64,000 nt of DNA from an uncultured Pseudomonadales bacterium (GTDB lineage Bacteria > Patescibacteriota > Microgenomatia > UBA1400 > RBG-16-45-19). The notes under the pieces are model-generated. The model ran no database searches, was not told the origin of the DNA, and saw only the letters and a list, made by a program, of their open reading frames with translations. Each line of letters begins with the position of its first letter. Within the stretch, counting starts at the first letter, position 1. The DNA is taken from contig CAYYKL010000005.1 in NCBI GenBank assembly GCA_964441155.1, positions 4,434-68,433 of the forward strand, written 5' to 3'. A program made the position numbers and the translations under genes. Of this stretch, positions 12,298 to 31,999 are shown in pieces.

Positions 12298-12313
12298 ATT
12301 GATTCAAATCAAT
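12298..12313. promoter_or_regulatory. perfect 16-bp palindrome ATTGATTCAAATCAAT in the divergent intergenic region (putative operator of the XRE regulator)
   Basis: 7-bp arms ATTGATT/AATCAAT with a 2-bp spacer sit between the operon start (12261) and the regulator gene. A TACAAT -10-like hexamer lies at 12350-12355. Confidence 0.55.
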
Positions 12314-12356
12314 AGATAATTTGATTCATATATACTTTTTCATATTTACTACAATC

Positions 12357-12782
12357 ATGTCAACCATTGATCCAAATCAAACATCTGCCCAGAAGATCGG
12401 AGCCTATATCCGCTATCAACGGACAAAGCGTGACTATTCCATTGATGATCTTGCCAAAAAATGTGATTTAAATCCTTCTTTTATCTTCAGACTGGAAAAA
12501 GGTGCTTACGAAACCATTCGACTCAATGTGATTGAGAAGCTGGCAGCTGGACTTAAAATGTCAATCCAAAGCCTATTGTTTAAATCGCAAATCATCACAA
12601 CGAGCGATCACCTGCCTCGGTTGGAGTATTACCTCAAGGAAAAATACCAATTCTCTCCCGAGGTTATCGAAGAGGTTCGCACGTTTATAAACTTTATGCA
12701 TTTCAAGCATGACGAAGAAATTGCTCAACTCAAGCAACTCCACGAGGCATATTGGAACAGATCTGATTATTTAGAAGAATAA
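12357..12782 (+). CDS. XRE-family helix-turn-helix transcriptional regulator
   Basis: IRYQRTKRDYSIDDLAKKCDLNPSFIFRLEKG is a Cro/C1-type HTH. The ORF track extends to a TTG at 12321 with a hydrophobic, probably spurious, N-terminal extension. Confidence 0.7.
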   Translation: MSTIDPNQTSAQKIGAYIRYQRTKRDYSIDDLAKKCDLNPSFIFRLEKGAYETIRLNVIEKLAAGLKMSIQSLLFKSQIITTSDHLPRLEYYLKEKYQFSPEVIEEVRTFINFMHFKHDEEIAQLKQLHEAYWNRSDYLEE

Positions 12783-12809
12783 GTGTCGATCAATTTAAGA
12801 GAATTCAAT

Positions 12810-15299: not shown

Positions 15300-15322
15300 A
15301 ACTGTTGGTAGTTTAGCATGAG

Positions 15323-15946
15323 CTACGTGTTGTAAAAGTTTACGCGTTTTGACAATAACTCATCAAAGACATCAATGGCGCTTTTGTGCCTGAAGTGAGG
15401 AAATCGCCTGCCTTTAACTTCTCTTTCAATATATATATCATTATCGTGTTTGGAAAAAGTTGGTTTTACCATATCAGAATCAAGTGCGCCCAATGTATCC
15501 GCTTCCATAAGTGCAATTTCATCATCATTCACTAATTCCTCCACTCGATCATGCATATACACTAAATGTTTTATTCGCAAGATTTCTTCTGGAGCATATT
15601 GATCGGAAAATTGCTCATTTAGCAATGTCTCAATTTTATTAGCACCCGCCTCCATATGCCTTTCTTTTTTGGTGTGTATATCGGTCATATCAGTCACCCC
15701 ATCTTCAAAAAGTCCGATATATCCCCAATCATGTGCATACGCAGCAGTTACCAATATTTTAAAATTCAAATTCGATTCGTTATCAATAATATATTTTATC
15801 CAGTGAACAACAGCTTGTGTGTGAGGCTTATCAAAATCTGGCCGTCCTTTGTCGAGATCCGGCAAAATTATCCCACTAATTTGTTCTTCCCAGTTTTGAT
15901 TTGATTTATGCATGCGTCCTTTCCCACTGACGTTGAATTTCTTCAA
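15323..15946 (-). CDS. small HD-domain hydrolase (YfbR-like 5'-deoxynucleotidase candidate)
   Basis: HTQAVVHWIKYI ... AAYAHDWGY ... HLVYMHD..EADTLG; 207 aa. Confidence 0.5.
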   Translation of the reverse strand: MKKFNVSGKGRMHKSNQNWEEQISGIILPDLDKGRPDFDKPHTQAVVHWIKYIIDNESNLNFKILVTAAYAHDWGYIGLFEDGVTDMTDIHTKKERHMEAGANKIETLLNEQFSDQYAPEEILRIKHLVYMHDRVEELVNDDEIALMEADTLGALDSDMVKPTFSKHDNDIYIEREVKGRRFPHFRHKSAIDVFDELLSKRVNFYNT

Positions 15947-16946
15947 AAGTTAATGCATGGCTTGGAGTACGCACTTTTTCTTGAAGAATGTTAACAGCCA
16001 ATTCACGAATTCCTGCAGCATTTTCATCACTGTAACCATCAAATGCTGCACCAACAACACACTTAAACGCAAATGGTACATGAATTTCTTTTAATACGTC
16101 AGGCGAATCATAAGCCTCAATGAGTGCGCTAGCTCTTTCAAATGCTTGCTGCTCGCCACCTGCCAACCACCTAAGAATCTGATCACCCACTGCAAATCCC
16201 ACATCGTAGCCTCTCGGACCATACGCAACAGCATTATCAAATAAATGCACTCGACCCTCAGGTGTTACCGAAGTATTATCTCGCCATGCATCTCCATGAA
16301 TTCTTCTCACCTCGAGCGCTTGAATGCCATGCGTTGCAACACCAATCATTAGTTCTTGAATAGTAGTAAGTTGATCTGATAATGATGGCTCTCGATCTCT
16401 CAAATAATCAGCAACTTCATTAAATCTTTCTCTGCCATAAATAGGATGTAATGAGCCATAAATGCTCCAATCCCTTAGTTCAGCTGGAGTTAACTCTACC
16501 CTCCGCTCATGCATCTCACGAAGGTGTGTTCCAAGATTTTCATAGGCAATCAATGCTAACGATTGATCATCTTCATTAATTACTTGTGTCAACAACCTTG
16601 GAGAAGGGTTTACTTCGAGCAACATTGCTATTCCTGTCATCCTATCAGGAACCCCTGCAAGCAATGCATCCTTGAGTAAACTGTTTGGGTCAAATGGGAT
16701 ATTCCTGATTTCGCCTTTATCTGCAGTGAACAATCCCTCCAACGCCTCAACACCTGCCAATTGATATGCCCGCAAATAATCCGGAGTAACCGCTTTTGGA
16801 ACTCTAAGAAACTTATCTCCCTCATTTGTGCCCACAACACAACCACTTGAGCCATATCCCTCAAACACTTCGCTCTTCTGTGATAGTCTTAACCCGTCAA
16901 GCCAGAAATTTAAATCATTACTTGATTCTTTTACGACTCTAAACAT
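15906..16946 (-). CDS. phosphotransferase of the APH/choline-kinase fold
   Basis: IHGDAWRDN (HGD....N catalytic loop) and LFDNAVAYGPRGYDVG (D.. metal-binding) give a protein-kinase-like fold. It overlaps both neighbouring genes. Confidence 0.5.
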   Translation of the reverse strand: MFRVVKESSNDLNFWLDGLRLSQKSEVFEGYGSSGCVVGTNEGDKFLRVPKAVTPDYLRAYQLAGVEALEGLFTADKGEIRNIPFDPNSLLKDALLAGVPDRMTGIAMLLEVNPSPRLLTQVINEDDQSLALIAYENLGTHLREMHERRVELTPAELRDWSIYGSLHPIYGRERFNEVADYLRDREPSLSDQLTTIQELMIGVATHGIQALEVRRIHGDAWRDNTSVTPEGRVHLFDNAVAYGPRGYDVGFAVGDQILRWLAGGEQQAFERASALIEAYDSPDVLKEIHVPFAFKCVVGAAFDGYSDENAAGIRELAVNILQEKVRTPSHALTFEEIQRQWERTHA

Positions 16947-17584
16947 ACTTCAATACAATCAATAATTTTTTCTTTAAGCATTTTCGAATGTTCGTCATTA
17001 TGCACAAAATCACTCACTTCCGCTTCAGAAACTTCAACGATTGACGTGGTTCCTAAGTTAAGTTGCTTTATTAGTTCGTGAATACCTATTTCCAACTGCA
17101 TCAAATAGTCTTGCGTGTAGTATGCCAATTCATAATCCCGCCCACGCTCTTTTAATCGTTTAAGCAGCGTTGGCATTGAATAATTGAGGTGAATCACGGT
17201 CAGTTCGGACAAAAGATTTTTGGTGACTGAGTTGTAGACTTTTTCATAGAGTTCCCATTCGTCTTGAGAGATGTTGCCTACCGCCAAATGACTATAGGTG
17301 TAGACCCAACTCATTAAAAGCCCACTATCAATCACCAATGGTTTGCCTGAGTTCATGGCAATCGCTTGCTCAAGTAGTTCTGCCCTGCGCATTGTGAGCC
17401 AAAGCTCATTGGTCAAAGCCCAGCGCTTGGTATTTTGCAAATAGAGCTCGCGGAAAGGATCTTCGGTTTGAAACAGGGTGTCAGCGTCAAGAAAATCTGC
17501 ACCTAGTGCTTCGACAATCAATGGCGCGGCACTAGTCTTGCCCGACGCCACATTGCCGATGATAGTGATGATGTTAGAACGCAT
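16931..17584 (-). CDS. deoxynucleoside kinase family protein
   Basis: IITIIGNVASGKTS P-loop at the N-terminus; size and layout resemble dNK/dGK/dCK. The start is taken at MRSN (the ORF track extends to 17620). Confidence 0.55.
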   Translation of the reverse strand: MRSNIITIIGNVASGKTSAAPLIVEALGADFLDADTLFQTEDPFRELYLQNTKRWALTNELWLTMRRAELLEQAIAMNSGKPLVIDSGLLMSWVYTYSHLAVGNISQDEWELYEKVYNSVTKNLLSELTVIHLNYSMPTLLKRLKERGRDYELAYYTQDYLMQLEIGIHELIKQLNLGTTSIVEVSEAEVSDFVHNDEHSKMLKEKIIDCIEVCLES

Positions 17585-19037
17585 GCCCATTTCTTTCATG
17601 TTTAGGCCTAAACAATACATCTAGATATCTCAAAGTATAGTCTAAATTAGTTGGATCAACCAGAATTCCCAATCTAAATCCCCCATCAAAATCAATAGCT
17701 TCGAAACTTTCGCTGCCTTCCAAACCTTTGCATTTCAAATTGTCCAAGATTTCTCGAAAATATTTGCATGCATCATAAACAACTTGAGCCACTACTGGTT
17801 TTTTCACTTCCTCGCCTTTTTCGTTAATCACCTTTTTTTCCTTTAGTGCAAGCTGATCTAAGGTTAAAGATGCTTCTTGAATTTGATCTCTGCGAATCAC
17901 AAGCTCTAGCTGCATCCCTCCATTATCATCATCAAAATCTGAATTATCTTTTACCCTTATCACGAATTGCTCCATCTCTGGTTTAAGGGCGAATAAAGCT
18001 TGCGACATAACAAGCACGCGATCTTTCATTAGCTTAGCGTATAAACTTAACCACGATAACAGATGAGGAACTCCCTCGAATCGGTGAAGATTATGCAATT
18101 CATCTGTTAATTTTTTTCGTGTATTATTTCTTGAGTCTGTTATTCCCAAAATGTTTTTGAAGTGTTCATCCATTTGCCCGGGCTTAAAATTAAGCTCCAG
18201 CACTAAACCATCTTCCTCAGCAAGAAAAGCGGTTTCCTCAATCATTGCCGCAACTTGATAATGCTCATCAACATCGGTTAACAATTGCTCATTCTCTAAA
18301 TGATCACACTTTTTACTTGTAATCCGCTTTATCTCTACAGCATCAGCTTTATCACCAGCCAAAATTGCCAGAGAGGGTCTTCCAAAATATTTAAGCATCT
18401 CTGAGTATGCTTCATGAGGATTTGAGTTCTTCTCCCAAATTCGTTTCATATGAGCGGCTGCGAATTTTTCGTCGTGGAGGGCGATTCCTCTCAAGATTTG
18501 ACGTCGAACACCCGGCATTGTTTTAAGCTCAGGAACCAAGTGATCAATTATTTTTTTCGTGACAAATGGATGAGCTTTTCTGCTAACCAACATGCCAGCA
18601 TCATGCAAGTATCCTTGAACTATCGCAATTCTGATTTCTTCTTCTGACGCTCCAAGGCTAGTCAACAAATCAACCGCTTTACTTGTAACTTCTCTAACGT
18701 GCTCTATGCCATGCCGATTAAATCCGTTTGGATACGATTCATCATGTGACGTTTCCACCAAATCATAATATGGCGTTAATCTTTGATCTAATTGATCAAT
18801 CAATTCTAGTCTTGAAGAGCCAAAAATATCTATAGGCGCAAATTCTGGCTGCTTAAATCTTCCCTGTTCATCAAAAAATAATGAATATATTTGTTGTTTT
18901 CCCAGTACTTCTGGTAATTTCTTATCGTTCTCCTCATTGCCCGTATAATTAATTACCAATCCTTCAGCTTGAAAAAGCCGCATTCCCTGTTTGACAGTAT
19001 TTGCAAAATCTTGTGGTCGAAGTGTTTCAGCTGGCAT
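17574..19037 (-). CDS. HD-domain phosphohydrolase with N- and C-terminal extensions (487 aa)
   Basis: NRHGIEHVREVTSKAV ... GYLHDAGM ... ALHDEKF gives an H..H...HD.G HD signature. Confidence 0.55.
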   Translation of the reverse strand: MPAETLRPQDFANTVKQGMRLFQAEGLVINYTGNEENDKKLPEVLGKQQIYSLFFDEQGRFKQPEFAPIDIFGSSRLELIDQLDQRLTPYYDLVETSHDESYPNGFNRHGIEHVREVTSKAVDLLTSLGASEEEIRIAIVQGYLHDAGMLVSRKAHPFVTKKIIDHLVPELKTMPGVRRQILRGIALHDEKFAAAHMKRIWEKNSNPHEAYSEMLKYFGRPSLAILAGDKADAVEIKRITSKKCDHLENEQLLTDVDEHYQVAAMIEETAFLAEEDGLVLELNFKPGQMDEHFKNILGITDSRNNTRKKLTDELHNLHRFEGVPHLLSWLSLYAKLMKDRVLVMSQALFALKPEMEQFVIRVKDNSDFDDDNGGMQLELVIRRDQIQEASLTLDQLALKEKKVINEKGEEVKKPVVAQVVYDACKYFREILDNLKCKGLEGSESFEAIDFDGGFRLGILVDPTNLDYTLRYLDVLFRPKHERNGHAF

Positions 19038-19952: not shown

Positions 19953-20729
19953 TTACAAATCAGCAATAATTCCGGTGAGCAATTGAACCATTTGCTTAGA
20001 ACTTGAGTTCGCAGCAGCTAAAACATCCTCATGAGCATGTTGCACAAAAGCCAAATTAGTCACAAACGACAATCCCAATACGTTAAGCTCAAGAGCGCGA
20101 GCCATAATCGTTTCGGGCACCGTGCTCATGCCCACCACATCGGCACCCAAGTGATGCAGTGCCATTTTATCGGCTGGGGTTTCAAAATGGGGCCCGTGCA
20201 TGTAGGCGTAAATGCCTTCGCGATAAGGCAGAGATTCGCGCGCACAGATCTTTTTGGCCACAAGCCGCAAATCTTGATTGAATGCTTGCGACATATCGAT
20301 AAACTGCGGTCCTACCAGCGGGTTTGAGGGCAAAAAGAGGGTGAGCACGTCGGAGAGAATGACGAAATCTCCAACGAGATACGACTCATTGAGCGCTCCT
20401 GATGCCGACGTCACAATGAGTTGCTTAATCCCTGCTTGCGCAAAGACTCGGATGGGCAGTGTTGCCTCTTGCGCAGCATAGCCTTCATAGAGATGGAGTC
20501 TGCCCTGCATGAAAGCCACTCGCTTTTCAGCAATTCTAGCAACGACGAGTTTTCCTTCGTGACCCGGCACCGTGGCACTTACGCCAAATAATTCTTTGTA
20601 GGAAATTTCTGTCTCAATTTCTGCCCCAACAAGCACTTGATTCCAACCTGTGCCAAGCATGAAAAGCAATGAGGGGAATTTTTTGATTTTCGATTGGACA
20701 ATCGACAGCGATTCTTGTTCTGAAAGCAT
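19953..20729 (-). CDS. purine nucleoside phosphorylase / MTA phosphorylase family (PNP-I trimeric type)
   Basis: GRLHLYEGY and VVGMSTVPE motifs; 258 aa. Confidence 0.7.
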   Translation of the reverse strand: MLSEQESLSIVQSKIKKFPSLLFMLGTGWNQVLVGAEIETEISYKELFGVSATVPGHEGKLVVARIAEKRVAFMQGRLHLYEGYAAQEATLPIRVFAQAGIKQLIVTSASGALNESYLVGDFVILSDVLTLFLPSNPLVGPQFIDMSQAFNQDLRLVAKKICARESLPYREGIYAYMHGPHFETPADKMALHHLGADVVGMSTVPETIMARALELNVLGLSFVTNLAFVQHAHEDVLAAANSSSKQMVQLLTGIIADL

Positions 20730-20746: not shown

Positions 20747-21634
20747 CTACCGCAATCGGTTTATGTCATCCCGCAGTTTTTTAGCCTCTTCTCGAGGATT
20801 ATCTGAAAAAATAATGCTTCTTGAAGCTGAGATCAAAAGTCCTTGCTTGTCCTTTGTTAAGCCTGCAAGCATCACCTGCTCCAAATCTCCGCCTTGCGCT
20901 CCAATGCCCGGAACAAGTAACCACATGTCGCCAACAATACCTCTGACCCTTTTCAATTCTTGCGGATACGTTGCCCCAACAACCAACATACAATTTCCAT
21001 TTACATTCCATTCTTGCGAAACTTTATGTGCTACAGATTCCCACAGTGGCGCTCTATTTGACACAGTGTGTAGGCTTTTCATACGCACTGTGTCATCCTG
21101 AGCGAGTAGAGAAACTGCTTGTTTCTCGACAGTCGAAGGATTACCTTCAACTATCAGATCTTGCAGCTCCCCTGCTCCTGGATTACTCGTGCGACATAAG
21201 ATTATGCTTCCTTTGTCAGATCGCTTGAGGAATGGCTGCAGTGCCTCTTGACCTAAATATGGGTGCAGTGTGACCGCATCACAGTTCAAATAATCAAAGA
21301 TTCCTGCAGCGTAGGCTTCGCTGGTGTCCGCAATGTCTCCTCGCTTTGCATCAGCGATAATCAAATGCTCTGAGTTATTCGCTTTAATAAATCGAATTAC
21401 TTTTTCCAACTGTTCATAGCCAGTTGGTCCTAATGCTTCAAAGTAGGCAAACTGGATTTTATAGACTCCAGTGAATTCATGCGTTTGCTCCACAATCCAT
21501 TTGCAGAATTCAAACAGGGGCTCGCTTGTTTCAAGGAATTTCTTTGGCAATAATTTGATGTTGGGATCAAGCCCAACACACAGAAGTGAATTATGAATTT
21601 GGATCGTTTTAATAAGTTTTTCTGCAAAGTTCAT
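20747..21634 (-). CDS. pyrF: orotidine 5'-phosphate decarboxylase, type 2
   Basis: LCVGLDP, KIQFAYFEALG and ADAKRGDIADT; 295 aa. Confidence 0.75.
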   Translation of the reverse strand: MNFAEKLIKTIQIHNSLLCVGLDPNIKLLPKKFLETSEPLFEFCKWIVEQTHEFTGVYKIQFAYFEALGPTGYEQLEKVIRFIKANNSEHLIIADAKRGDIADTSEAYAAGIFDYLNCDAVTLHPYLGQEALQPFLKRSDKGSIILCRTSNPGAGELQDLIVEGNPSTVEKQAVSLLAQDDTVRMKSLHTVSNRAPLWESVAHKVSQEWNVNGNCMLVVGATYPQELKRVRGIVGDMWLLVPGIGAQGGDLEQVMLAGLTKDKQGLLISASRSIIFSDNPREEAKKLRDDINRLR

Positions 21635-21646
21635 ACAATTGAATAG

Positions 21647-22276
21647 TTATATTTCTGTGCCAAAATACCGATCGCCATAGTCTCCCAATCCGGGCACAAT
21701 ATATTTTTTGGCATTGAGATGTGAATCTACCGCTGCCGTGAAGATTTTAATGTTTGGATACTTATTTTGAATGGTTTCGATTCCTTCTGGTGCCACGAGC
21801 ACGCAAACAATGCGAATTTCTTTGGGATTGGCCTTTGCTACGCGCTCCAATAGATGCGCAATAGATCCTCCGGTAGCCAACATTGGATCGGTAACCATTA
21901 CCACAGTGTCTTGCGAAATATGAGGCATTTTCCAATAATATTCTGAAGCAATAGCTGTCTTTTCATCTCGAACCATGCCCACAAATCCAACCTTAGCTTT
22001 GGGCAGCAATTTCAGTGCTCCAAACAACATGCACGTTCCGGAGCGTAAAACCGGCACGATCATAATTTCTTCGGCAAATTTTTCACTCTCAATTTTTGCA
22101 AGTGGTGTGTCTATAGTTGTTTGTTTGAACGTTAAACCTTTAATTGCTTCTGAAAATAACAGCTCACATAACTGATCGCTGTAATGGCGAAATGTTTCAA
22201 TCGACGTATTTTTGTCTCGCAAATGAGTCAAAGAATCGCAGACAAAAGGATTCTGGGAAATATACACGTTTTTCAT
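21647..22276 (-). CDS. upp: uracil phosphoribosyltransferase
   Basis: VVMVTDPMLATGGS and YIVPGLGDYGDRYFGT; 209 aa. Confidence 0.85.
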   Translation of the reverse strand: MKNVYISQNPFVCDSLTHLRDKNTSIETFRHYSDQLCELLFSEAIKGLTFKQTTIDTPLAKIESEKFAEEIMIVPVLRSGTCMLFGALKLLPKAKVGFVGMVRDEKTAIASEYYWKMPHISQDTVVMVTDPMLATGGSIAHLLERVAKANPKEIRIVCVLVAPEGIETIQNKYPNIKIFTAAVDSHLNAKKYIVPGLGDYGDRYFGTEI

Positions 22277-22920
22277 GATTGCCTAGTTCGTGATTCTTGC
22301 CACTTCAAAGGATCTCTCAACCACGATTCCACTGCCTTGCACGCTTTGGCATCAATAATCTGCTCATCAATCGCTCGTGGCAAGATTTGCTCAAACGAAG
22401 TCAGGGTGTGCAGCGCAACATTCGCTTCAGCAAAACTCTCAGTAGCTGCACTAAAACCATAACTCGTGATCGCAATACAATCGTGCACGGTTGCACCCTC
22501 GTCACGCAGCGCGCTAACTCCCGCCAAGCTACTTCCTCCTGTAGTTATGTGATCCTCAAGCAACAATACTTTTTTACCACGCACCTCACCGCCTTCAATC
22601 ATTTTTTTGGTGCCGTGATCCTTGGCACTTTTTCGCACAAACACCGATGGCACTTCAAGGGCATAGCCCAAAGCGGCAGAGTGTGGGATTCCAGCTGTTT
22701 CGATGCCGGCTATGACCTCAAAGTTGAGATTCTTTTCTTTTATGAGCTGTCTAAAACCCTCAATAATCACTTTCCAAGCTTGAGGGTGATGCGGAAATCG
22801 CCGGTTATCAATATAAACAGGCGAAACGATTCCCGACTTAAAGGTGATCGGATTATCGACCACAAATCCCACCGCTTTAATTGATAAAAGTGCTTGCGCA
22901 ACGTTTTGAGCATAGTTCAT
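22273..22920 (-). CDS. pyrE: orotate phosphoribosyltransferase
   Basis: FKSGIVSPVYIDNR, VRKSAKDHG and KKVLLLEDHITTGGS; 4-nt overlap with upp. Confidence 0.8.
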   Translation of the reverse strand: MNYAQNVAQALLSIKAVGFVVDNPITFKSGIVSPVYIDNRRFPHHPQAWKVIIEGFRQLIKEKNLNFEVIAGIETAGIPHSAALGYALEVPSVFVRKSAKDHGTKKMIEGGEVRGKKVLLLEDHITTGGSSLAGVSALRDEGATVHDCIAITSYGFSAATESFAEANVALHTLTSFEQILPRAIDEQIIDAKACKAVESWLRDPLKWQESRTRQS

Positions 22921-22926: not shown

Positions 22927-23988
22927 TTATTCCTTAATTTCTTGAGCTAAATAGGGATTCCACATGGCAGCCGTGGCACTCATAACCGCATCGGCTCCTG
23001 CGCTTCGATAGTTAACATAATCGCTCGCAGATGAAACCCCGCCCACACCAATAATTGAAAAGCTCATGTTGTGCTTTGAGCGAAGTATAGCGAGCCCCGC
23101 AACCATATCCAACCCCGCCCAGCGGATCGATTCGCCACAAATACCACTAACTTCCCTTCCCTTTCCAGGTAATGCTTGCTCTCCAGCTGAAGTAGATACT
23201 CTCGCCGGAATCGTGTTGATTGCAGCTAATCCCTGAACAATTCCGCCAACACTGGTCACCAATGTTTCCAACTGCTCTTGGTTTTCAAAGTAGCCTAATT
23301 TTAGGATGAGAGGAATGTTGCCGATTTCATCTTTGATGGCAGAGGCAATTTCAAGCACACGCGCAGTGTCATAACATAATAAGTGTGCTTTACCTTCGTT
23401 GGGGCAACTAAGGTTCGCTTCCAAAATTTTGGCACCCGTTTCTTTGACTAATCGAGCCGCCAAAACATAGTCTTTGAGGTACGTTTCAAAATTACCATCT
23501 CCCGAAGATGTCCCCTGGAAACTACCTATCATGACTTGACCATGTCCTGCCGATTTCAAAGCTTGCCGCATATCTTCTTGCCAAAATGATGGATCTTTGG
23601 AGGGAACACCGAAGGAATTGGTGATAGAAAGGGGTGACTCATAGTTTTCCTTAGTCACCACTCCATCTGTCAGCGCGCTTAAGGCTAAATCATCCTGAAC
23701 ATCTACTGCCAACACGTTTGGCCAGACTGCACACTCATAGGCTCTGCTGCGGACAGTTTTATAGGTGGCAATGTCAAAGCCTTTGGCAAATGCAGCTTTC
23801 ACAAAATTGGCATTCAAGAGCGGGCCCGCGGGAATTCCGAATGGCTCATAAACAGCAAAGCCCATAAAGCTGTGCTTGGGCTCTCCTATTCGAGCGAGTG
23901 CTTTCCCATCGGCAAAATCACCAAACGGACCCTCAAGAAAATTCGCTTCGTAGGTCTTAGTTGGATCATAAAAAGGTTCATGCATCAT
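22927..23988 (-). CDS. pyrD: dihydroorotate dehydrogenase, class 1 (Cys active-site base)
   Basis: GFAVYEPFGIPAGPL, YKTVRSR, ANLSCPN and IIGVGGVSSASD. Confidence 0.75.
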   Translation of the reverse strand: MMHEPFYDPTKTYEANFLEGPFGDFADGKALARIGEPKHSFMGFAVYEPFGIPAGPLLNANFVKAAFAKGFDIATYKTVRSRAYECAVWPNVLAVDVQDDLALSALTDGVVTKENYESPLSITNSFGVPSKDPSFWQEDMRQALKSAGHGQVMIGSFQGTSSGDGNFETYLKDYVLAARLVKETGAKILEANLSCPNEGKAHLLCYDTARVLEIASAIKDEIGNIPLILKLGYFENQEQLETLVTSVGGIVQGLAAINTIPARVSTSAGEQALPGKGREVSGICGESIRWAGLDMVAGLAILRSKHNMSFSIIGVGGVSSASDYVNYRSAGADAVMSATAAMWNPYLAQEIKE

Positions 23989-24971
23989 GCGCTTAATCCT
24001 AATACTTTTCTGCCATTGGTGGTGGCGATTTTTACAATTGCATCAATGTCAGTTAAGCGGTTTCCCGTGGTAAGTAGCATAAGCTCTTGCCACATATTGC
24101 CATCGCAAAAAGGCACCATATAGTCACAAATATTATCAGTTCCCAGTGCAACCACAATACCGGCTTGAATCAGCTCATCAACTGGTGTGAGCGCATTATG
24201 AAAAGGTTGCATAACTTCTTTGCGTGGGCTATCGATCCATGCCACGGGGCAAGCAATCACCATCATGCCCGCTTGTTTCATAAGCGAGTAGACTTTTTGG
24301 CGATACGCTTTCGGGTGAGCCGCCAAGGAAATTGAGTGAATCGCAACTACTCTACCCTCCATCCCGTGTTCAATCGTTTTTTTTGCAAGTAGTTCAGTTT
24401 CCGTATCCTCGGTAGTATTAAATTGATCCACATGCACCTGAACCAGCTTTCCTTGCTTTTTCCCTGCCTTGAGCAAAATATCAATATGCTCTGCCCCTTT
24501 GCCATAATCTCGCTCATCTCGCTTGGGCAATCCACCAATAATATCAACTTGCTCGCAGGCCACATCAAACCACTTTCGGGCACTGGGCTCAATAACGCCT
24601 TTGAGCGTTTGATTAGCCAACACCAATTCGATTTTCCCTTTATATGCTTCTCGGGCCTTGATTGCTCCCCGCAACGCTCTGTCTTCGCAAATGGGATCTA
24701 CATCGACGAAAGACCCAAGAACCTTCACCTCTTGCTCCAGCATCACCTCAATCGCCATCGACATTCTCCGATAATAATCATCGACCGTGGCATTTTTTTT
24801 GACCACATCAACCAGATCCCATTTTTCTTCTAAAGAATGTTTGCGATAATTATCGAGAGTGTCTGGGTTGACGGTAAAGGCTCTGTCAGCGTGAGCATGA
24901 GCATTCACCCAGCCGCCGTTTTTAGTAATTTCTTCTAAAATGAGGGGTTTAAAGGAAAAGGGTTTTTTCAT
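23985..24971 (-). CDS. metal-dependent amidohydrolase, cytosine-deaminase (CodA)-like
   Basis: NAHAHADRAF (HxH metal site), VHVDQ and ALGTDN. Dihydroorotase cannot be excluded. Confidence 0.5.
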   Translation of the reverse strand: MKKPFSFKPLILEEITKNGGWVNAHAHADRAFTVNPDTLDNYRKHSLEEKWDLVDVVKKNATVDDYYRRMSMAIEVMLEQEVKVLGSFVDVDPICEDRALRGAIKAREAYKGKIELVLANQTLKGVIEPSARKWFDVACEQVDIIGGLPKRDERDYGKGAEHIDILLKAGKKQGKLVQVHVDQFNTTEDTETELLAKKTIEHGMEGRVVAIHSISLAAHPKAYRQKVYSLMKQAGMMVIACPVAWIDSPRKEVMQPFHNALTPVDELIQAGIVVALGTDNICDYMVPFCDGNMWQELMLLTTGNRLTDIDAIVKIATTNGRKVLGLSA

Positions 24972-24980: not shown

Positions 24981-26600
24981 TTACAAATTCCCAAATTTTG
25001 ATCGATAGAGCTTGTCGATGTGTCGCTTGGCTGTATCCACCGTGGTAAACAGAGGCACATTTTCGTCAATCGCCTTAGCTCGAATTCGTTTGCCATCCGT
25101 ACCCTCAGTTTTGTCAGAGACTGATGTAGGCACACATACCACCAGATCAAATCGTCGCTCATCCAGTAGGTTGGACAAGTTGGGCGATTCATTCTCGTGA
25201 ATTTTGTAAACGAGAAAGTTGGTTATTCCTTGTTCAAGCAAGTAGTGATGCGTGTTTTGGGTGGCGAAAATTTGGAAACCCAATTCTTGCAGCTGCCCAG
25301 CACTCTCAAGCATTTTCTTTTTGTTTTCGGTTTTGCCGATAGACAGCAGTGCACTTTTTTCGCCACGCTGTTGGGCAAGGCGCATTTGCATCGAATAGAC
25401 TTCAATGAAAGGTGCTGCCGTCATCACATTAAAGGGCGCAGCTTTCGCGTTTGTGTTATCGAACGACACATGATGTAGACCATGTGGAGAGGTGAGTGCA
25501 ACCACGGTTGCATGCCCTTTAAATAATTGAACTTTAACCACACCGTCCACTTTTTCATTAATTTTGTCGTTGTAGGCTCTCATATCATCCATCGCGGGGT
25601 CATACCAGAGAGCGCCATAGGTTAAGTAGCCAAACTTGATGTCCATGGTTTCTTTAAGTTCGTTTTCAAGACGAGTGCACACGTATTTCTCCAAGTTTTT
25701 GTGCGCTTTGATGATGATGTGCGCTCCAGGATGCTCGTAAATCCCGCGAGTTTTTAATCCAACCAACCGATCTTCAACGTGATACTCGACTCCTACGCCA
25801 TGTTTGCCGCCGATTTTGTTGAGCTGCATAATAAGCTCGCTAAGGGGGAGTGTTTTGCCATTAAGTTTTTTCGGAATCCCCCGAGCAAACTCAAGCTCCA
25901 CCATTTCTGCCTTGTCGGGCGTTTTATCAATCGTTCTGCAAGCAGTCAAAAACTTTTCAATTGGCGGCACCAATGAGGGATCTTCAATCTCGCCACCTTC
26001 CCAGGTCATTCCCCACATATTATCATCATCGCTGTAGGGGAAATCTTTGCGCACGCGGACAGGAATTTTGTGTTTCAGCGCATAGTCGATTTGCTCATCG
26101 CGACTCATGTTCCACTCACGCACAGGAGCAATAATTTTCATAGCCGGATTCAGGGTCAACACACTGCCGTCCAGGCGCACTTGATCGTTGCCCTTGCCAG
26201 TGCACCCGTGGGCCACGGTGTCAGCATTTTCGCGCGCGGCAATCACTATTGCCCATTTGGCCATAAGATAGCGGCTAACCGTGGAAATGTAGTAATTGCC
26301 CTGATAGGCCGCATTGGCTTTGATCATGTGAGAAAGGTAGTCGGCAGCGAATTCTTGCTTGGCATCGATGACATAGGCTTTGACCGCCCCCAGCTTAAGT
26401 GCCTTTGCTTTAATCGCTTCGAGATCATCACCTTGTTGCCCCAGGTCAAGTGTCAGGGCTATTACTTCTGCCTGGTATTTGTCTTGTAACCACTTGAGCA
26501 TCATGCTGGTATCTAATCCTCCGGAATACAAAAGCACCACTTTTTTAATTTCGCCTTCGCGGGCTTCGTAGCTTGAGACTTTGGTGTAAACGGTTTGCAT
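24981..26600 (-). CDS. argG: argininosuccinate synthase fused to a C-terminal MGS-like (methylglyoxal synthase-like) domain
   Basis: VVLLYSGGLDTS PP-loop and HGCTGKGNDQVRLD match ArgG. A C-terminal domain of about 130 aa (ALLSIGKTENKK..GFQIFATQNTHHYL..LVVCVPT) resembles the CarB/PurH MGS-like fold. Confidence 0.7.
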   Translation of the reverse strand: MQTVYTKVSSYEAREGEIKKVVLLYSGGLDTSMMLKWLQDKYQAEVIALTLDLGQQGDDLEAIKAKALKLGAVKAYVIDAKQEFAADYLSHMIKANAAYQGNYYISTVSRYLMAKWAIVIAARENADTVAHGCTGKGNDQVRLDGSVLTLNPAMKIIAPVREWNMSRDEQIDYALKHKIPVRVRKDFPYSDDDNMWGMTWEGGEIEDPSLVPPIEKFLTACRTIDKTPDKAEMVELEFARGIPKKLNGKTLPLSELIMQLNKIGGKHGVGVEYHVEDRLVGLKTRGIYEHPGAHIIIKAHKNLEKYVCTRLENELKETMDIKFGYLTYGALWYDPAMDDMRAYNDKINEKVDGVVKVQLFKGHATVVALTSPHGLHHVSFDNTNAKAAPFNVMTAAPFIEVYSMQMRLAQQRGEKSALLSIGKTENKKKMLESAGQLQELGFQIFATQNTHHYLLEQGITNFLVYKIHENESPNLSNLLDERRFDLVVCVPTSVSDKTEGTDGKRIRAKAIDENVPLFTTVDTAKRHIDKLYRSKFGNL

Positions 26601-26628
26601 AATCGTGTTCCTTTCAAGGATAAATTGG

Positions 26629-26654
26629 CAAAAAAAAGAGGCTTATAAAGCCTC
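26629..26654 (-). terminator. intrinsic terminator (GAGGCTT-ata-AAGCCTC plus U8 on the minus strand)
   Basis: Perfect 7-bp stem followed on the minus strand by eight T. It lies 30 nt upstream of the argG start. Confidence 0.6.
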
Positions 26655-26728
26655 AGCTGTCATTCATAAGTGATTTCTGCAGTTTCCCGCGCAGTGAACG
26701 TAATTGGTGGGTTAGAGTTTTGGCGCAT

Positions 26729-26781
26729 AAAAAATCCGGAGGTAAGTGTTAAAGCTTAAATTGCTTTAACCGGCTCCGGGA
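26729..26781 (-). terminator. intrinsic terminator downstream of yoeB (long imperfect hairpin plus U6 on the minus strand)
   Basis: CCGGAG..GTTAAAGC-loop-GCTTTAAC..CTCCGG followed by TTTTTT on the minus strand. Confidence 0.5.
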
Positions 26782-26833
26782 TTAAACTGTAGCAAAGGCA
26801 ACGGAAGCTCGTCAATGGGGCAAAAAATACGAT

Positions 26834-27088
26834 CTAATAATGATATCGACAGGCAATTATAACTACTACATCTTGTTTAACTTGATAAACCAACCGATGT
26901 TCACTATCAATTCGTCTGGACCAACACCCGTGCAAATTGGCTTTAAGCAACTCTGGTTTCCCTGAGCCAACAAAAGGGTTTTTTGCTGTTTCTTTAATAA
27001 GTGTGTTGATACGTCTCAATTGTTTCTTGTCGGTTGTAAGCCAGTATTGATAGTCACCCCAAGCACGAGGAGTAAAAAGAATATTCAT
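26834..27088 (-). CDS. yoeB: YoeB-family toxin (mRNA interferase)
   Basis: FTPRAWGDYQYW..DKKQLRRINTLIKE..NPFVGSGKPELLKANLHGCWSRRIDSEHRLVY..IIACRYHY. Confidence 0.85.
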   Translation of the reverse strand: MNILFTPRAWGDYQYWLTTDKKQLRRINTLIKETAKNPFVGSGKPELLKANLHGCWSRRIDSEHRLVYQVKQDVVVIIACRYHY

Positions 27089-27097
27089 GCTATAGCA

Positions 27098-27352
27098 CTA
27101 CACTTCAATCAACTTCTTTCGTAATATATTGACTTCACGAACTTGTGCAAGCGACTCAAGAAGATGTTTTTTGTTTGCTTCACTGACTAATAAATAATTC
27201 GTTTCTTGCCAAGCATTGAAGTCGTCAATCGACACCATCACCACATTTTCGCGGTTTTTGCGCGTAACAATTAAGGGCTCCCGATTTTGAAAGACTGAGT
27301 CCATGTGACGTTTGAGATTTTTTCTGAGGTCAGAGTACGTAATTGCGTTCAT
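27098..27352 (-). CDS. yefM: YefM/Phd-family antitoxin
   Basis: MNAITYSDLRKNLKRHMDSV..EPLIVTRKNRENVVMVSIDDFNAWQETNYLL. It lies 10 nt upstream of yoeB. Confidence 0.8.
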   Translation of the reverse strand: MNAITYSDLRKNLKRHMDSVFQNREPLIVTRKNRENVVMVSIDDFNAWQETNYLLVSEANKKHLLESLAQVREVNILRKKLIEV

Positions 27353-27362
27353 AATTACGTAC
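27335..27362. promoter_or_regulatory. palindrome GTACGTAATT-N8-AATTACGTAC spanning the yefM start codon, plus tandem TTGTACG repeats (putative YefM-YoeB operator)
   Basis: 10-bp perfect inverted arms. The TGTAC core recalls characterised yefM operators. A TTGACC-17-TATATT promoter lies immediately upstream on the minus strand (about 27360-27395). Confidence 0.5.
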
Positions 27363-27407
27363 AATATAGCGTACAATTGCTATGTGGTCAATGTGTCGTG
27401 CGAGGAT

Positions 27408-28777: not shown

Positions 28778-29710
28778 ATGAAAGCATTTATAGCATTGAG
28801 TTTCAAGGATCGAGAAGAGCTAGATTCGGCTATAACACAAATTGAAAATGCATTAAAGAAATTTGGGTATAACGAGGTTGAAGTATTCGTACGGAGACAG
28901 ACAAGTTCATTGGTTTCAAGTCAAGAAATTATGCAAGCGGCGCTACAGCACATTACAGAGAGCCAGCTTGTTGTTGCAGAAATTTCTCACAAAGCAGTTG
29001 GCATTGGAATTGAAGTTGGTCATGCATATGCAAGGCATATTCCAATAATTGGAATTAGACGAGCAGGATCAGTATTATCAACTACTCTCGAGGGAGTATT
29101 AGCAGCCCCTGTCATCGAATATTCCTCAGAAGAAGAAATTCCACACTTGCTTTCGGATGCAATTCAAAGTCTATCTGAATCTAATCAAGAAATAAGGCTT
29201 AAAGAATTAAATACTCACGAACTAGCATTACTTGACTACGTTTTGGATTCATCCCGCTCGTTACTCTTCGAGTTTAATAAAACGACTCATTCCAAACCAA
29301 GTTTTAACATATCCGATCTTACAAATGAAAAAGAAGAAGAAGGTAAGTTATTAGTATTGGCTCGAGAATTTTGCTATGGCCTTAATATGGGGGGAAATGA
29401 TACGCAATTAAGATTTTGGAGACTACTCACATCCGACCTCCCGCCTCTAGAAACAATTAATGAAATTGATCAAATTGGATTATCCCGAGGTGAATCTCCT
29501 TTTCAAATCGCATTAATGTCTGTTCAATTAGCTCTTGGTGAGAGGATGAGAAATCAATACCCTAATCAACAAGAATTGCTCGAGGGAACTGCTGAGATCT
29601 ATAGCTGGCTCTGGAATTCAGAAACGCCCCGAATAAAAATTGATAATGAAGTAAGATTTTTAGAAAGTATTCGAGAGAAAAGCTTAAGCGATCGATCCCG
29701 CAGAATTTAA
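28778..29710 (+). CDS. nucleoside 2-deoxyribosyltransferase-like (NDT/Rcl/DNPH1-fold) N-terminal domain fused to an uncharacterised C-terminal domain of about 190 aa
   Basis: N-terminus MKAFIALSFKD... and VVAEISHKAVGIGIEVGHAYARHIPIIGI match the NDT-family catalytic E.G.A.A...P(V/I)I segment. Confidence 0.55.
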   Translation: MKAFIALSFKDREELDSAITQIENALKKFGYNEVEVFVRRQTSSLVSSQEIMQAALQHITESQLVVAEISHKAVGIGIEVGHAYARHIPIIGIRRAGSVLSTTLEGVLAAPVIEYSSEEEIPHLLSDAIQSLSESNQEIRLKELNTHELALLDYVLDSSRSLLFEFNKTTHSKPSFNISDLTNEKEEEGKLLVLAREFCYGLNMGGNDTQLRFWRLLTSDLPPLETINEIDQIGLSRGESPFQIALMSVQLALGERMRNQYPNQQELLEGTAEIYSWLWNSETPRIKIDNEVRFLESIREKSLSDRSRRI

Positions 29711-29741
29711 ACTATTTCCAAACAAATATTGCACATTATAT

Positions 29742-31361
29742 GTGTATAAGGTACAATACCGCGGTATTTATTATAGGTTTCTTATGGCTGCAGAAATTGT
29801 GATCGCTCAAGAAGCTAACATCTATTCAAAGTCTGATAGGTATTCGGGTCTCCTACCTGATTATTACACCAATCTTGAAAGGTTTATAGGAGATTCAGAT
29901 AGATCAAAATGGCTATCCCTAAGAAAGGGTTATGATCATTTAGCATTACCCTATCACGAAGGTCCATATGACTTGGTAGTGGTGAATACTCCATCTTCAT
30001 ATGAGCAGGGTGCTGTACCCACAAAAGAAGAACCACCTTTTGGAGCAATCAGATGCGTGGCTACTGCTAATTCAGCCGGGTTGATAGCGGGTTTACTCGA
30101 TGCTCATGCACTTAATATGGATTTAGAGCAAATTCGAGCGCAGCTTGAACTTTTGCAGCCTAGAATTGTCGGTATAAACCCCACATCAGTTAATGTTGCT
30201 GTAGGAAAAGCTTTGGCAAAATTGCTTGATGAAATGAGAGTTGACTATGTTGTGGGAGGTATTCATGCAACCATGGACCCTGCCAGAGCACGCGCTGATT
30301 TTCGATCAGCATACGCCATAATCAAGGGTGACGGTGAATTGGCATTACCCGCAGTTGTTAGACACGCAAAAGATGGTACTTCAATCACTGCTGGAACATT
30401 TTTGAGGAATCAAGATCTTACTCTAAGTTTGTATTTGCCCTATGCACCCAAAATTGATATCGGTGAGTTACCGATAATACCCCAAGAAAAATACGTGCAA
30501 TATCCCCTCGTTGAACAAATAATCGATTTTCGCGGGGAACCCAGAAAAGTCTTAGAAGCTAGTTCCTACATGACTAGAGGATGTCCTTTTGAATGTGGAT
30601 TCTGCTCTTCGCCAGTAATGGTTGGTAGAGGCCTCAAAGGAGTGCGTCCTTATGATCACCCGGGAATGAGCAAAGTTGTTGATGAAGTAGAAAGATTAAT
30701 AGGAATTGGTGCAGATGCCATTCATTTTCTGGATGATATGGTGATGGTTAAACCTGCAGATATTGAAGCATTTCATGATATTGCAGAACAAAGAGGAATT
30801 CTTGGAAAATTCGCGTGGCGTGGCATGACTCGTGCCCCAGTTGTCTCAAGAAATACATTCACCCCTGAAATAACTGGGAAATTAGCTGAAAGTGGCTGCT
30901 GGCGAATGACGCTAGGTGTAGAAAGCGGCAATGACCAAGTACTAGCAGCAATCAAAAAACAAATAACCACTAATGACGTTAGAGAAGCTGTCAGAAAGCT
31001 TGTGGGTGCGGGAATACAAGTAAAGGCTTTTTTCATTATGGGTTTTCCAGGGGAAACATATGAGCAAATGCTTGACACCAACAGGTTTGTCATGGAGCTG
31101 AAAAAGATGGGTTTAGGAAGTATCTCTATTTTCCAATTTAAACCATATCCAGGAACTATGTTGTGGGAAAAAATTGAGAAAGAAAACCCTGATGCATTAA
31201 CGCATCTTGACTACATTGGTGGAGATGCCCGTAGTGAAGTCGGTGGCAAAAGAGGTATTCAAGGTGTTTATTTGCCTGATGATTTGGTGATCGCGGATGG
31301 AGTGTCTAGCGGCAGAGTAAGAGAACTTGTTCAAACAACATTAGCAGATTTTTTTAGCTAA
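29742..31361 (+). CDS. cobalamin-binding (class B) radical SAM enzyme
   Basis: YMTRGCPFECGFCSS (CxxxCxxC) is preceded by a Rossmann-like B12-binding region of about 250 aa. An alternative start at MAAEIV (29784) is possible. Confidence 0.7.
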   Translation: MYKVQYRGIYYRFLMAAEIVIAQEANIYSKSDRYSGLLPDYYTNLERFIGDSDRSKWLSLRKGYDHLALPYHEGPYDLVVVNTPSSYEQGAVPTKEEPPFGAIRCVATANSAGLIAGLLDAHALNMDLEQIRAQLELLQPRIVGINPTSVNVAVGKALAKLLDEMRVDYVVGGIHATMDPARARADFRSAYAIIKGDGELALPAVVRHAKDGTSITAGTFLRNQDLTLSLYLPYAPKIDIGELPIIPQEKYVQYPLVEQIIDFRGEPRKVLEASSYMTRGCPFECGFCSSPVMVGRGLKGVRPYDHPGMSKVVDEVERLIGIGADAIHFLDDMVMVKPADIEAFHDIAEQRGILGKFAWRGMTRAPVVSRNTFTPEITGKLAESGCWRMTLGVESGNDQVLAAIKKQITTNDVREAVRKLVGAGIQVKAFFIMGFPGETYEQMLDTNRFVMELKKMGLGSISIFQFKPYPGTMLWEKIEKENPDALTHLDYIGGDARSEVGGKRGIQGVYLPDDLVIADGVSSGRVRELVQTTLADFFS

Positions 31362-31366
31362 ATCCT

Positions 31367-31999
31367 ATGAGTGGCATTGCGCTTGTATCTGGAATCAATT
31401 CTGTAGGCAAAGGTGAAGTATGTAGAATATTAGCTAGATTGATTCCGAATTCTCGACATTTAAGTCTATCAGGATTGATGAAAGATCTTGGTGCTCTTGA
31501 TGGTCACCATTCTCTTGGCAGCATGGGAATAGAGGAAAGAAATATTTTAAGGCGAAATGCACTGGATTTAGTAAGAACAGCAAGTGAAAATCATTCTGTG
31601 CTTTTAGATTCTCATTTTGTGTTTGAAGATGGGGAAAGATCAGATTTCTCAAGAATAAGAAGTGCTACCGCCCAAATCGTTTTAGTCGGATCTTCTCCAC
31701 AAACAATTCGCAGTAGGCTATCTTATGATCCAGAAATAAATCAAAGGCCAGCCAGGATTGCACTATTAGGTTTTACTGATCAAGAAATTACCGATTACAT
31801 TTGCGCAGACGAAAGAGAGGCAAAGATTTTTGCATCACTTCAGAATCCAACTATACCTCTTGTTCGAATAGATAACGATTTCCCTTCTATTCCCATGCTT
31901 GAAGACTATCTGACACAAATATCTCCAGAGTTGCTAGACAACTTTCACCGACCCTCCAATGAGGGTATTGAGGGCCCACCCAGACTATTGAGAAGATGA
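31367..31999 (+). CDS. P-loop kinase-like protein with atypical Walker A (GINSVGKGE)
   Basis: IALVSGINSVGKGEVCRILARL near the N-terminus. 210 aa, the size range of nucleoside and nucleotide kinases. Assignment is weak. Confidence 0.35.
   Translation: MSGIALVSGINSVGKGEVCRILARLIPNSRHLSLSGLMKDLGALDGHHSLGSMGIEERNILRRNALDLVRTASENHSVLLDSHFVFEDGERSDFSRIRSATAQIVLVGSSPQTIRSRLSYDPEINQRPARIALLGFTDQEITDYICADEREAKIFASLQNPTIPLVRIDNDFPSIPMLEDYLTQISPELLDNFHRPSNEGIEGPPRLLRR

Follow-up and report, generated by a model that had tools for sequence, protein, structure and literature searches.

The gene at positions 24981 to 26600 (minus strand) of contig stretch CAYYKL010000005.1, a 64,000-nucleotide piece of DNA referred to here as the window, belongs to a bacterium of the candidate phyla radiation (CPR, Patescibacteria) and encodes a protein of 539 residues that we call ArgG-MGS. 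We hold it to be very probable that this protein is an argininosuccinate synthase (ArgG) extended by a domain of CarB type and of regulatory nature. Its gene heads a pyrimidine operon, and ArgG-MGS probably starts an undescribed route to pyrimidines from citrulline or arginine and aspartate. We favour, with good though not full confidence, a role of the enzyme in pyrimidine synthesis over one in arginine synthesis.

The ArgG-MGS open reading frame (ORF) starts with ATG and has no internal stop. Pfam assigns residues 20-180 to Arginosuc_synth (E 9e-62), residues 189-408 to Arginosuc_syn_C (E 1e-56) and residues 430-519 to MGS (PF02142; E 4e-16, 59.3 bits against a gathering cut-off of 24.1). 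The argininosuccinate synthase catalytic part (residues 20-408) occupies positions 25377 to 26543 and the Pfam core of the CarB-type allosteric (MGS-like) domain positions 25044 to 25313, both on the minus strand, the entire domain extending over residues 413-535 approximately. All 120 homologues among the matches listed (55-94% identity, 518-565 residues) possess the same three domains; their named sources are Microgenomates, Roizmanbacteria, Torokbacteria or the "Patescibacteria group," and they are mostly Patescibacteria. A protein identical to that of the window is found on 10 independent contigs from different samples, and an alignment of 30 diverse fusions, used for residue conservation in both domains, runs unbroken across the domain junction. 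The C-terminal domain of the AlphaFold model reaches a pLDDT of about 85-92, and a Foldseek search with this model retrieved the ArgG family and its relative, the nitrile synthetase ArtA, followed by carbamoyl phosphate synthetase (CPS) large subunits, including the complex with inosine monophosphate (IMP), 1ce8. A frameshift or assembly artefact joining two genes is excluded because the listed homologues share this architecture, at about 540 residues, and the identical protein recurs on 10 contigs. The continuous alignment at the junction also speaks against such an artefact, nothing was found in its favour, and we regard its probability as negligible. The preliminary description of this locus had proposed a single gene in which a genuine ArgG is joined to an MGS-like domain, and the domain search of the C-terminal region, the fold matches and the shared three-domain composition all bear it out.

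The ArgG half has the hallmarks of the canonical enzyme. It scores 465.3 bits with the NCBIfam argG equivalog NF001770 (cut-off 334), which covers the N-terminal 410 residues, and 416.4 bits with TIGR00032 (cut-off 268.2). Both motifs quoted in the preliminary description are present, YSGGLDTS at residues 25-32 and HGCTGKGNDQVRLD at residues 131-144. The former contains the PP-loop SGGxDTS of N-type ATP pyrophosphatases, here S26-G-G-L-D-T-S32, which is invariant in the 30 fusions. In Thermus thermophilus ArgG (1j1z), we take Y84, S89, T116, N120, D121, R124, S173, S182, E258 and Y270 to be the citrulline and aspartate contacts. In the HMMER alignment, Y84, T116, N120, D121 and R124 correspond to Y103, T134, N138, D139 and R142 of ArgG-MGS, and S173, S182, E258 and Y270 to S190, T199, E276 and Y288. 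The conservative replacement of S182 by T199 is the sole change among these nine aligned residues; the equivalent of S89 is ambiguous owing to a one-residue gap, with S109 nearby. Eight of the nine are invariant in the 30 fusions, and T199 is nearly so. As to the phylogenetic placement of the ArgG domain, raised as a question in the earlier description, the fused copies form a single clade. Fourteen positions separate them from canonical ArgGs, none of which is one of the presumed substrate contacts. The product of ArgG-MGS is predicted to be argininosuccinate because the substrate residues are intact, and the ArgG half should thus be catalytically ordinary, yielding argininosuccinate from citrulline, aspartate and ATP. 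A ligase repurposed for an alternative ureido substrate, as had been suggested, is not favoured, since nine of the ten presumed contacts align as identical or serine-to-threonine and the tenth is ambiguous. In this lineage the fate of the product, rather than the ligase chemistry, appears to have been repurposed.

The C-terminal extension resembles one particular member of the MGS superfamily. Residues 414-531 match CarB positions 933-1046 of 1058 (NCBIfam), and the sole solved chain outside the ArgG family matched by sequence is 2yvq, the MGS-like domain of human CPS1. Using Escherichia coli CarB as the reference, S948, K954, T974, T977 and K993 map to identical residues S420, K427, T447, T450 and K466 of ArgG-MGS, and D1025, I1029 and T1042 to identical D502, I506 and T519. 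Seven positions of the MGS domain are invariant in the 30 fusions, among them K427, T447, T450 and K466. We take K954 and T974 of CarB to be phosphate-site residues for uridine monophosphate (UMP) and IMP. T977 and K993 of CarB are crucial for UMP inhibition and binding, the S948F substitution abolishes sensitivity to UMP and IMP, and T1042 binds ornithine (Charlier review, PMC6245113). By sequence, the extension is thus an effector module of CarB type, with an intact predicted phosphate or nucleotide pocket (S420, K427, T447, T450, K466) and with T519 as the likely counterpart of the ornithine-binding threonine. By analogy with CarB, it would place ArgG-MGS under the control of UMP and possibly also of IMP or ornithine.

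Nucleotide-responsive regulation, as put forward in the preliminary description, thus seems the best reading of the domain, given that the UMP residues T977 and K993, the UMP/IMP residue S948 and the ornithine residue T1042 all have counterparts. The analogy drawn there with the PurH cyclohydrolase did not hold, as the profile and fold matches are all to CarB or CPS. A catalytic role of the domain, similar to methylglyoxal synthase or to the IMP cyclohydrolase of PurH, could be argued from the name of the Pfam family and from the fold common to MgsA and the PurH N-domain, but the specific matches are all to the CarB/CPS1 allosteric domain and the invariant residues fall on the CarB effector site. 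Moreover, the domain is appended to three ATP-dependent pathway-entry enzymes (CarB, ArgG and an AsnA-like protein), which is typical of a regulatory module, and we consider a catalytic function very improbable. One protein, P0252 (414 residues), is made up entirely of three MGS-like domains in tandem.

The operon, on the minus strand throughout, comprises the genes for ArgG-MGS, an amidohydrolase, a PyrD-like protein, PyrE, Upp, PyrF and a nucleoside phosphorylase (PNP), in this order, with gaps of -4 to 17 nucleotides; ArgG-MGS is its first gene and PNP the last tightly packed one. The second gene (23985 to 24971) codes for an AtzC/CodA-like mononuclear amidohydrolase of 328 residues that belongs to NCBIfam NF005365/PRK06886. 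The third (22927 to 23988), the ORF of which overlaps the amidohydrolase stop by 4 nucleotides, codes for a divergent class-1-like dihydroorotate dehydrogenase of 353 residues (Pfam DHO_dh, 62 bits). This PyrD-like protein falls below all NCBIfam cut-offs and has dihydroorotate dehydrogenase 5ue9 as its best PDB match (E 1e-7); it harbors the class-1 NLSCPN catalytic-cysteine loop and an N-terminal extension of about 110 residues. Then follow an orotate phosphoribosyltransferase-like gene (pyrE; 22273 to 22920; Pfam Pribosyltran), the position of which is conserved in relatives, and those for uracil phosphoribosyltransferase (upp; 21647 to 22276; Pfam UPRTase, E 3e-65), orotidine monophosphate decarboxylase (pyrF; 20747 to 21634; Pfam OMPdecase, E 2e-30) and a purine/uridine nucleoside phosphorylase family protein (19953 to 20729; Pfam PNP_UDP_1). 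The CodA-like, pyrD, pyrE, upp and pyrF neighbors had been correctly recognized from the sequence, as the Pfam and NCBIfam assignments show. No gene for CarA, CarB, PyrB, PyrC, ArgH, ornithine transcarbamoylase (OTC, ArgF), ArcA or a DDAH- or arginine deiminase-like protein was found within the 64-kb window. Elsewhere, a PyrD-like protein of the same family replaces canonical PyrD beside carAB-pyrB-pyrC in locus L015 (2435-3514), and one of 639 residues with extra C-terminal domains is encoded in L028 (12442-14358).

As a control for the 19 distinct fusion loci, we used 79 loci of canonical, unfused ArgG, taken from a metagenome scan with the fusion alignment, among the matches listed, which were mostly canonical ArgG. 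The PRK06886-type amidohydrolase is encoded in 18 of the 19 fusion loci, including five of the six retrieved via ArgG itself, versus none of the 79 canonical loci listed. PyrD of either type is found in 16 fusion loci and one canonical locus (Fisher p 2e-14), PyrF in 13 and none (p 5e-12), and a DDAH-like protein in six and none. The opposite is true for ArgH, present in one fusion locus versus 32 canonical loci, in 29 of which it is adjacent (p 3e-3). OTC-like genes occur in 16 of the 79 canonical loci; they were not counted in the fusion loci, where one below-cutoff match fell on the aspartate transcarbamoylase (ATCase) gene of L017. Distant fusion homologues keep the order ArgG-MGS, amidohydrolase, PyrD-type, PyrE/PyrF, and a DDAH/arginine-dihydrolase-like gene often adjoins that of ArgG-MGS. 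The pyrimidine-cluster setting, previously described as unusual, is thus conserved and statistically distinct from that of canonical ArgG. The fused ArgGs form one clade, and behind the gene of their closest unfused relative (L098) lies an ORF recognized by eye from its sequence as ArgH-like; the fused lineage therefore appears to have exchanged its arginine partner for pyrimidine partners.

Gene fusions tie the same enzymes together; these fusions and the AtzC-like amidohydrolase form the central partner logic, which the preliminary description had not recognized. In L003, a single polypeptide of 737 residues combines the amidohydrolase with the PyrD-like protein and is colinear with the two window genes (63% and 61% identity). 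An exhaustive search in which the MGS domain served as the sole query, followed by Pfam analysis, uncovered fusions of MGS with an amidohydrolase, assigned to the same amidohydrolase family by the motifs HxH..DKAY, HVDQ and DN..MPFCDGDMW; one is a complete stand-alone gene in a contig of 69% GC, outside the CPR (L094 65-1528, P0292; also P0284). Other MGS-domain fusions are AsnA/AsnRS-like+MGS, AsnA-like+MGS+DHO_dh and AsnA-like+MGS+DHO_dh+phosphoribosyltransferase (PRTase), the last of 1134 residues. Proteins with the AsnA-like+MGS combination are P0258, P0289 and P0335, and in P0258 and P0335 it is fused to PyrD(+PRTase). In L028 (10962-12458) and L034 (10953-12461), an AsnA-like-MGS gene lies between those of the amidohydrolase and the PyrD-like protein. 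The AsnA/AsnRS-like enzyme, of an aspartate-adenylating type, may be an ATP-dependent ring-closure enzyme or an alternative pyrimidine entry enzyme. As these fusions and loci indicate, the CarB-type module is found on three ATP-dependent enzymes that are all wired to PyrD. In the ArgG-MGS cluster of L011, the PyrD-like gene is followed by an aspartate ammonia-lyase-like gene (12057-13400), whose product could provide aspartate from fumarate and ammonia.

The amidohydrolase matches NF005365, a family annotated as "hypothetical protein," with 505 bits (cut-off 340), and misses all NCBIfam cytosine deaminase models (75-89 bits, cut-offs 403-483). Its closest PDB sequences are AtzC (E 2.6e-23) and then cytosine deaminases, and with its model (pLDDT 88) the top Foldseek matches are 5-methylcytosine deaminase, AtzC and CodA, at a TM score of about 0.8. 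Dihydroorotase (DHOase) is absent from the top 50 Foldseek PDB matches, and no DHOase family is found among the Pfam and NCBIfam matches; the true CPR PyrC-like proteins (L017, L015) belong to a different family.

AtzC coordinates Zn through His60, His62, His217 and Asp303, has His249 as an essential catalytic residue and lines its substrate pocket with Lys65, Gln160, His219, Asn304 and Trp309, of which Lys65 and Asn304 contact the substrate and Trp309 stacks on the ring (PMC4577212). The four Zn ligands correspond to H25, H27, H180 and D279 of the amidohydrolase, and His249 to H212, all invariant. N280 is AtzC-like, as it corresponds to Asn304 and to Asp314 of CodA, and Lys65 is replaced by R30, Trp309 by M285 and His219 by D182; R30 and M285 are invariant as well, also in the copies from Pasteurellaceae. 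The probable equivalent of Gln160 is Q121, if the alignment is moved by about two residues and a two-residue insertion is allowed. The catalytic Glu217 of CodA is replaced by Q183 of the HVDQ motif, and both Q183 and N280 (in the DN motif) are invariant or nearly so, Pasteurellaceae copies included. The predicted pocket is related to that of AtzC yet different, and we therefore did not file the enzyme as AtzC; M285 in place of the aromatic-stacking tryptophan fits a non-aromatic substrate.

In its own reaction, AtzC acts on a guanidine-type ring carbon that lies between two nitrogens and expels an alkylamine from it. Argininosuccinate cyclizes spontaneously, and by analogy its six-membered anhydride would offer AtzC-like local chemistry at the future C2 of dihydroorotate, with the delta-amine of ornithine as the leaving group. 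Two loci are in keeping with this idea. In L012, the amidohydrolase gene adjoins a genuine argH, which codes for the other enzyme making or using argininosuccinate. In L010 (11636-14319), ArgG-MGS is followed by a 454-residue amidohydrolase whose best NCBIfam model is 8-oxoguanine deaminase (443 bits, below the cut-off of 532), a family acting on a cyclic guanidine carbon, from which it takes off an exocyclic amine. The next gene in this locus codes for a protein of 438 residues that matches no family but has a CX3CX2C motif and may be a radical S-adenosylmethionine (SAM) enzyme; the two lie at the usual place of the PRK06886 amidohydrolase and the PyrD-like protein.

Homologues of the amidohydrolase with about 63% identity and an identical predicted pocket are found in cultured Pasteurellaceae (L030-L090, e.g., L084 9938-10972; P0391-P0509), including Haemophilus parainfluenzae, Actinobacillus pleuropneumoniae, Mannheimia haemolytica, Gallibacterium, Glaesserella and others, where they are annotated generically as amidohydrolase, hypothetical, "AtzC" or "cytosine deaminase." This distribution of NF005365 suggests gene transfer between Pasteurellaceae and CPR bacteria. 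The gene context in Pasteurellaceae was discarded as a functional clue, as the nearby pyrE is that of the usual rph-pyrE unit. Several metagenome-assembled genomes titled "uncultured Gammaproteobacteria/Pseudomonadales" (L014, L015, L017, L019-L021, L026, L034) contain CPR-type clusters with amidohydrolases 66-73% identical to that of the window, and their taxonomic labels look doubtful.

The proposed route would run as follows. Citrulline would be imported or, where a DDAH-like enzyme is present, made from arginine. ArgG-MGS, as its strong homology indicates, would condense citrulline with aspartate and ATP to give argininosuccinate, AMP and pyrophosphate. The amidohydrolase would then act on argininosuccinate, presumably in its cyclized form, at the guanidino carbon and expel the delta-amine of ornithine, releasing dihydroorotate and ornithine, and the PyrD-like protein, PyrE and PyrF, again by strong homology, would complete the synthesis of UMP. 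The MGS domain would exert end-product control on the ArgG-MGS step. CarAB, PyrB and PyrC would be dispensable because the C2/N3 unit of the ring would come from citrulline instead of carbamoyl phosphate. On this full chain, i.e., a citrulline-fed and regulated entry to pyrimidines through argininosuccinate with ArgG-MGS as its first enzyme, our judgment is evenly poised. We are more hesitant about its widest form, a tentative proposal in which a carbamoyl-phosphate-independent de novo pyrimidine pathway would be widespread in Patescibacteria, with arginine converted to citrulline by DDAH-like enzymes, UMP feedback through the borrowed CarB domain and AsnA-like-MGS proteins aiding ring closure in some lineages, and in which the same amidohydrolase would let canonical ArgG feed pyrimidine synthesis in Pasteurellaceae.

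Several observations weigh against the proposed route. Together with the fusion, the clusters of L015, L017 and L027 contain carA and carB, genes for PyrD and for a DHOase-like protein, and a gene for an ATCase that is genuine by TIGR00670 (above cut-off). The ArgG-MGS module can thus coexist with the canonical route, for which it may be an extra entry, or it may have another role; the idea that the module always replaces CarAB, PyrB and PyrC was rejected on account of these three loci. In L015, moreover, the gene immediately upstream of ArgG-MGS is a genuine argH. A cycle with ornithine as a catalytic carrier through OTC found no support either, as the transcarbamoylase encoded in these clusters is an authentic ATCase, with no OTC in the vicinity. 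No citrulline source is encoded within the 64-kb window, the ring-closure step has no assigned enzyme, and the Pasteurellaceae amidohydrolase genes are monocistronic and unlinked to ArgG or pyr genes. As to the effector, N1015, T1016 and T1017 of CarB, presumably its ribose contacts, correspond to C489, V490 and P491 in ArgG-MGS; because they are not conserved, the effector may be neither UMP nor IMP. With respect to sampling, the amidohydrolase had served as the query for 13 of the 19 fusion loci, so that six, found via ArgG itself, are left as unbiased for neighbors, and the fusion loci are phylogenetically related to each other. Lastly, no published description of an ArgG-MGS fusion, of the amidohydrolase family or of the pathway was found in the literature searched.

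Two other accounts of the operon were considered. ArgG-MGS might take part in ordinary arginine synthesis from scavenged citrulline, with ArgH encoded elsewhere and the CarB-type domain balancing the use of aspartate and ATP against nucleotide status, while the amidohydrolase would be an unrelated salvage deaminase, acting on cytosine, 5-methylcytosine or an isocytosine-like base and feeding Upp. The canonical ArgG residues, the adjacent ArgH of L015, the 5-methylcytosine and cytosine deaminases among the closest structural neighbors of the amidohydrolase, the presence of Upp and PNP in the operon and the solitary amidohydrolase genes of Pasteurellaceae are all compatible with this account. 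It is nevertheless difficult to reconcile with the scarcity of ArgH in the fusion loci (1/19, compared with 32/79 canonical loci listed) and with the replacement of Glu217 and Asp314 of CodA by glutamine and asparagine, invariant or nearly so. Fusions of the amidohydrolase to PyrD-like and MGS domains would make no sense for a base-salvage deaminase, and a DDAH/arginine-dihydrolase-like enzyme beside ArgG (6/19 loci) would create a futile arginine-citrulline-arginine cycle. Furthermore, PyrD, PyrE and PyrF would lack a substrate in an operon devoid of PyrB and PyrC. We thus consider arginine synthesis an unlikely function.

The other account retains pyrimidine synthesis with a different division of labor. 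The amidohydrolase would hydrolyze linear argininosuccinate to N-carbamoyl-aspartate and ornithine, thereby bypassing ATCase, and the ring would be closed by DHOase where present or by the AsnA-like-MGS ligase through ATP-dependent activation of the beta-carboxyl group. Such a scheme would make sense of the PyrC-like genes that coexist with the fusion in L015, L017 and L027, and of the AsnA-like-MGS proteins placed between the amidohydrolase and PyrD-like genes (L028, L034) or fused to PyrD(+PRTase) (P0258, P0335). However, neither PyrC nor AsnA-like-MGS is within reach in the window and in most fusion loci, the direct fusion of the amidohydrolase to the PyrD-like protein in L003 suggests that the product of the former is the substrate of the latter, and AtzC/CodA-type enzymes use ring substrates. 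Release of N-carbamoyl-aspartate therefore strikes us as improbable, and we retain direct formation of dihydroorotate as the preferred reading.

The operon is preceded by a leader (26628 to 26815, minus strand) that is a candidate transcription attenuator. It consists of a sigma70-like promoter (26815-26786), a first hairpin followed by T6 (about 26780-26729), a possible leader ORF of 22 codons (26728-26660) and a second, terminator-like hairpin, GAGGCTT-TAT-AAGCCTC, followed by T8 (26654-26628), 28 nucleotides before the ATG. Relatives repeat this layout, with a promoter, a leader of about 100-130 nucleotides and a GC hairpin with a T-run just before the ArgG-MGS start. Terminator-like sites are found upstream of 10 of 18 ArgG-MGS starts, compared with 20 of 297 other genes of the same loci (p=3e-7). 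The leader-bearing loci are L003, L005, L010, L011, L013, L017, L020, L025, L027 and L028; in L010, L017 and L027 the ATG follows the T-run without a gap, and the leader stems are often AGAGCC..GGCTCT. No Rfam match was obtained in the leader or elsewhere in the window, and a PyrR-type site in the leader is thus unsupported. By its sequence features, the leader fits an attenuator-controlled biosynthetic operon.

The operon lies in a nucleotide-salvage island (TK, Tmk, dNK, PRTases, FolD), and the surroundings are a housekeeping region of CPR type. Directly upstream of the leader is a YefM(Phd)/YoeB toxin-antitoxin pair (26834-27376, minus strand), the YoeB gene call of which is missing in one variant contig (L008, L009). 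Beside TK and Tmk, a divergently oriented trio (28778-31999, plus strand) codes for a nucleoside 2-deoxyribosyltransferase-like protein (310 residues, weak Pfam match), a B12-binding radical-SAM protein (539 residues) and an AAA_17 kinase-like protein, and may represent a nucleoside-modifying or salvage module. On the other side of the operon, four consecutive ORFs without Pfam match (396, 196-207, 346 and 487 residues; 14109-19037, minus strand) are interleaved with a deoxynucleoside kinase in the nucleotide island.

To our knowledge, de novo pyrimidine synthesis is taken to proceed via carbamoyl phosphate, ATCase and DHOase in all organisms. Metabolic reconstructions of CPR bacteria score the pyrimidine pathway as incomplete when those genes are missing. 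If argininosuccinate were a second entry to dihydroorotate, arginine or citrulline from the host could serve many ultra-small bacteria deemed auxotrophic as the starting material for pyrimidines, and an otherwise universal pathway would have a new route. A function would also be gained for NF005365, a large family of "hypothetical" amidohydrolases that is also present in veterinary and human Pasteurellaceae, and the CarB allosteric domain would represent a portable UMP sensor, attached by evolution to at least three entry enzymes. The pathway idea is directly testable, and Pasteurellaceae offer tractable organisms in which to test the amidohydrolase family.

Each component has relatives in known systems. 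Compared with canonical ArgG/ASS1 (EC 6.3.4.5; T. thermophilus 1j1z, Legionella pneumophila 6xnq), ArgG-MGS has about 40-50% identity by HMMER and 42% to 6xnq by structural alignment, and it shares the fold, the PP-loop and the citrulline and aspartate contacts. It differs in its additional CarB-type domain of 130 residues, its N-terminal extension of about 18 residues, its separate clade and its linkage to pyrimidine genes and the amidohydrolase gene instead of argH and argF. The allosteric domain of CarB and human CPS1 (1ce8, 2yvq) has the same fold, is identical at S948, K954, T974, T977, K993 and T1042 and is likewise located C-terminal to an ATP-dependent enzyme at the entry to pyrimidines, but its presumed ribose contacts N1015-T1017 have no conserved counterparts in ArgG-MGS, its host is an ATP-grasp synthetase rather than an N-type ATP pyrophosphatase, and the ornithine site of CarB is partly built by another CarB domain that is absent from ArgG-MGS.

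The amidohydrolase has in common with AtzC and CodA-type deaminases (subtype III amidohydrolases) the HxH/His/Asp metal site, the equivalent of His249, the asparagine at AtzC position 304 and a basic residue at AtzC position 65. In the case of AtzC, an N-isopropylammelide isopropylaminohydrolase, alkylamine displacement is the very chemistry that the proposed step needs. Unlike these enzymes, the amidohydrolase has no N-terminal beta-sandwich domain (328 residues versus about 400-425), features methionine for the stacking Trp309 and Asp-Gln for His219/Glu217, and forms the separate family NF005365. Canonical pyrimidine operons (carAB-pyrB-pyrC-pyrD-pyrF-pyrE; the E. coli pyrBI/pyrE and Bacillus pyr attenuators) similarly contain PyrD, PyrE and PyrF, a leader terminator before the first gene and a UMP-type allosteric domain on the first step. 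In contrast, the first three enzymes are absent from the window operon and from the 64 kb, where ArgG-MGS and the amidohydrolase are found instead, and the window leader has no PyrR-site or other Rfam match. The nearest published concept comes from Thermococcus kodakarensis, which is devoid of CPS and obtains the pyrimidine carbamoyl unit from arginine or citrulline by the arginine synthetase pathway (PMC13260591). In that organism, citrulline is converted to carbamoyl phosphate by OTC, followed by ATCase and DHOase, whereas the route proposed here, by way of argininosuccinate, would do without carbamoyl phosphate, ATCase and DHOase.

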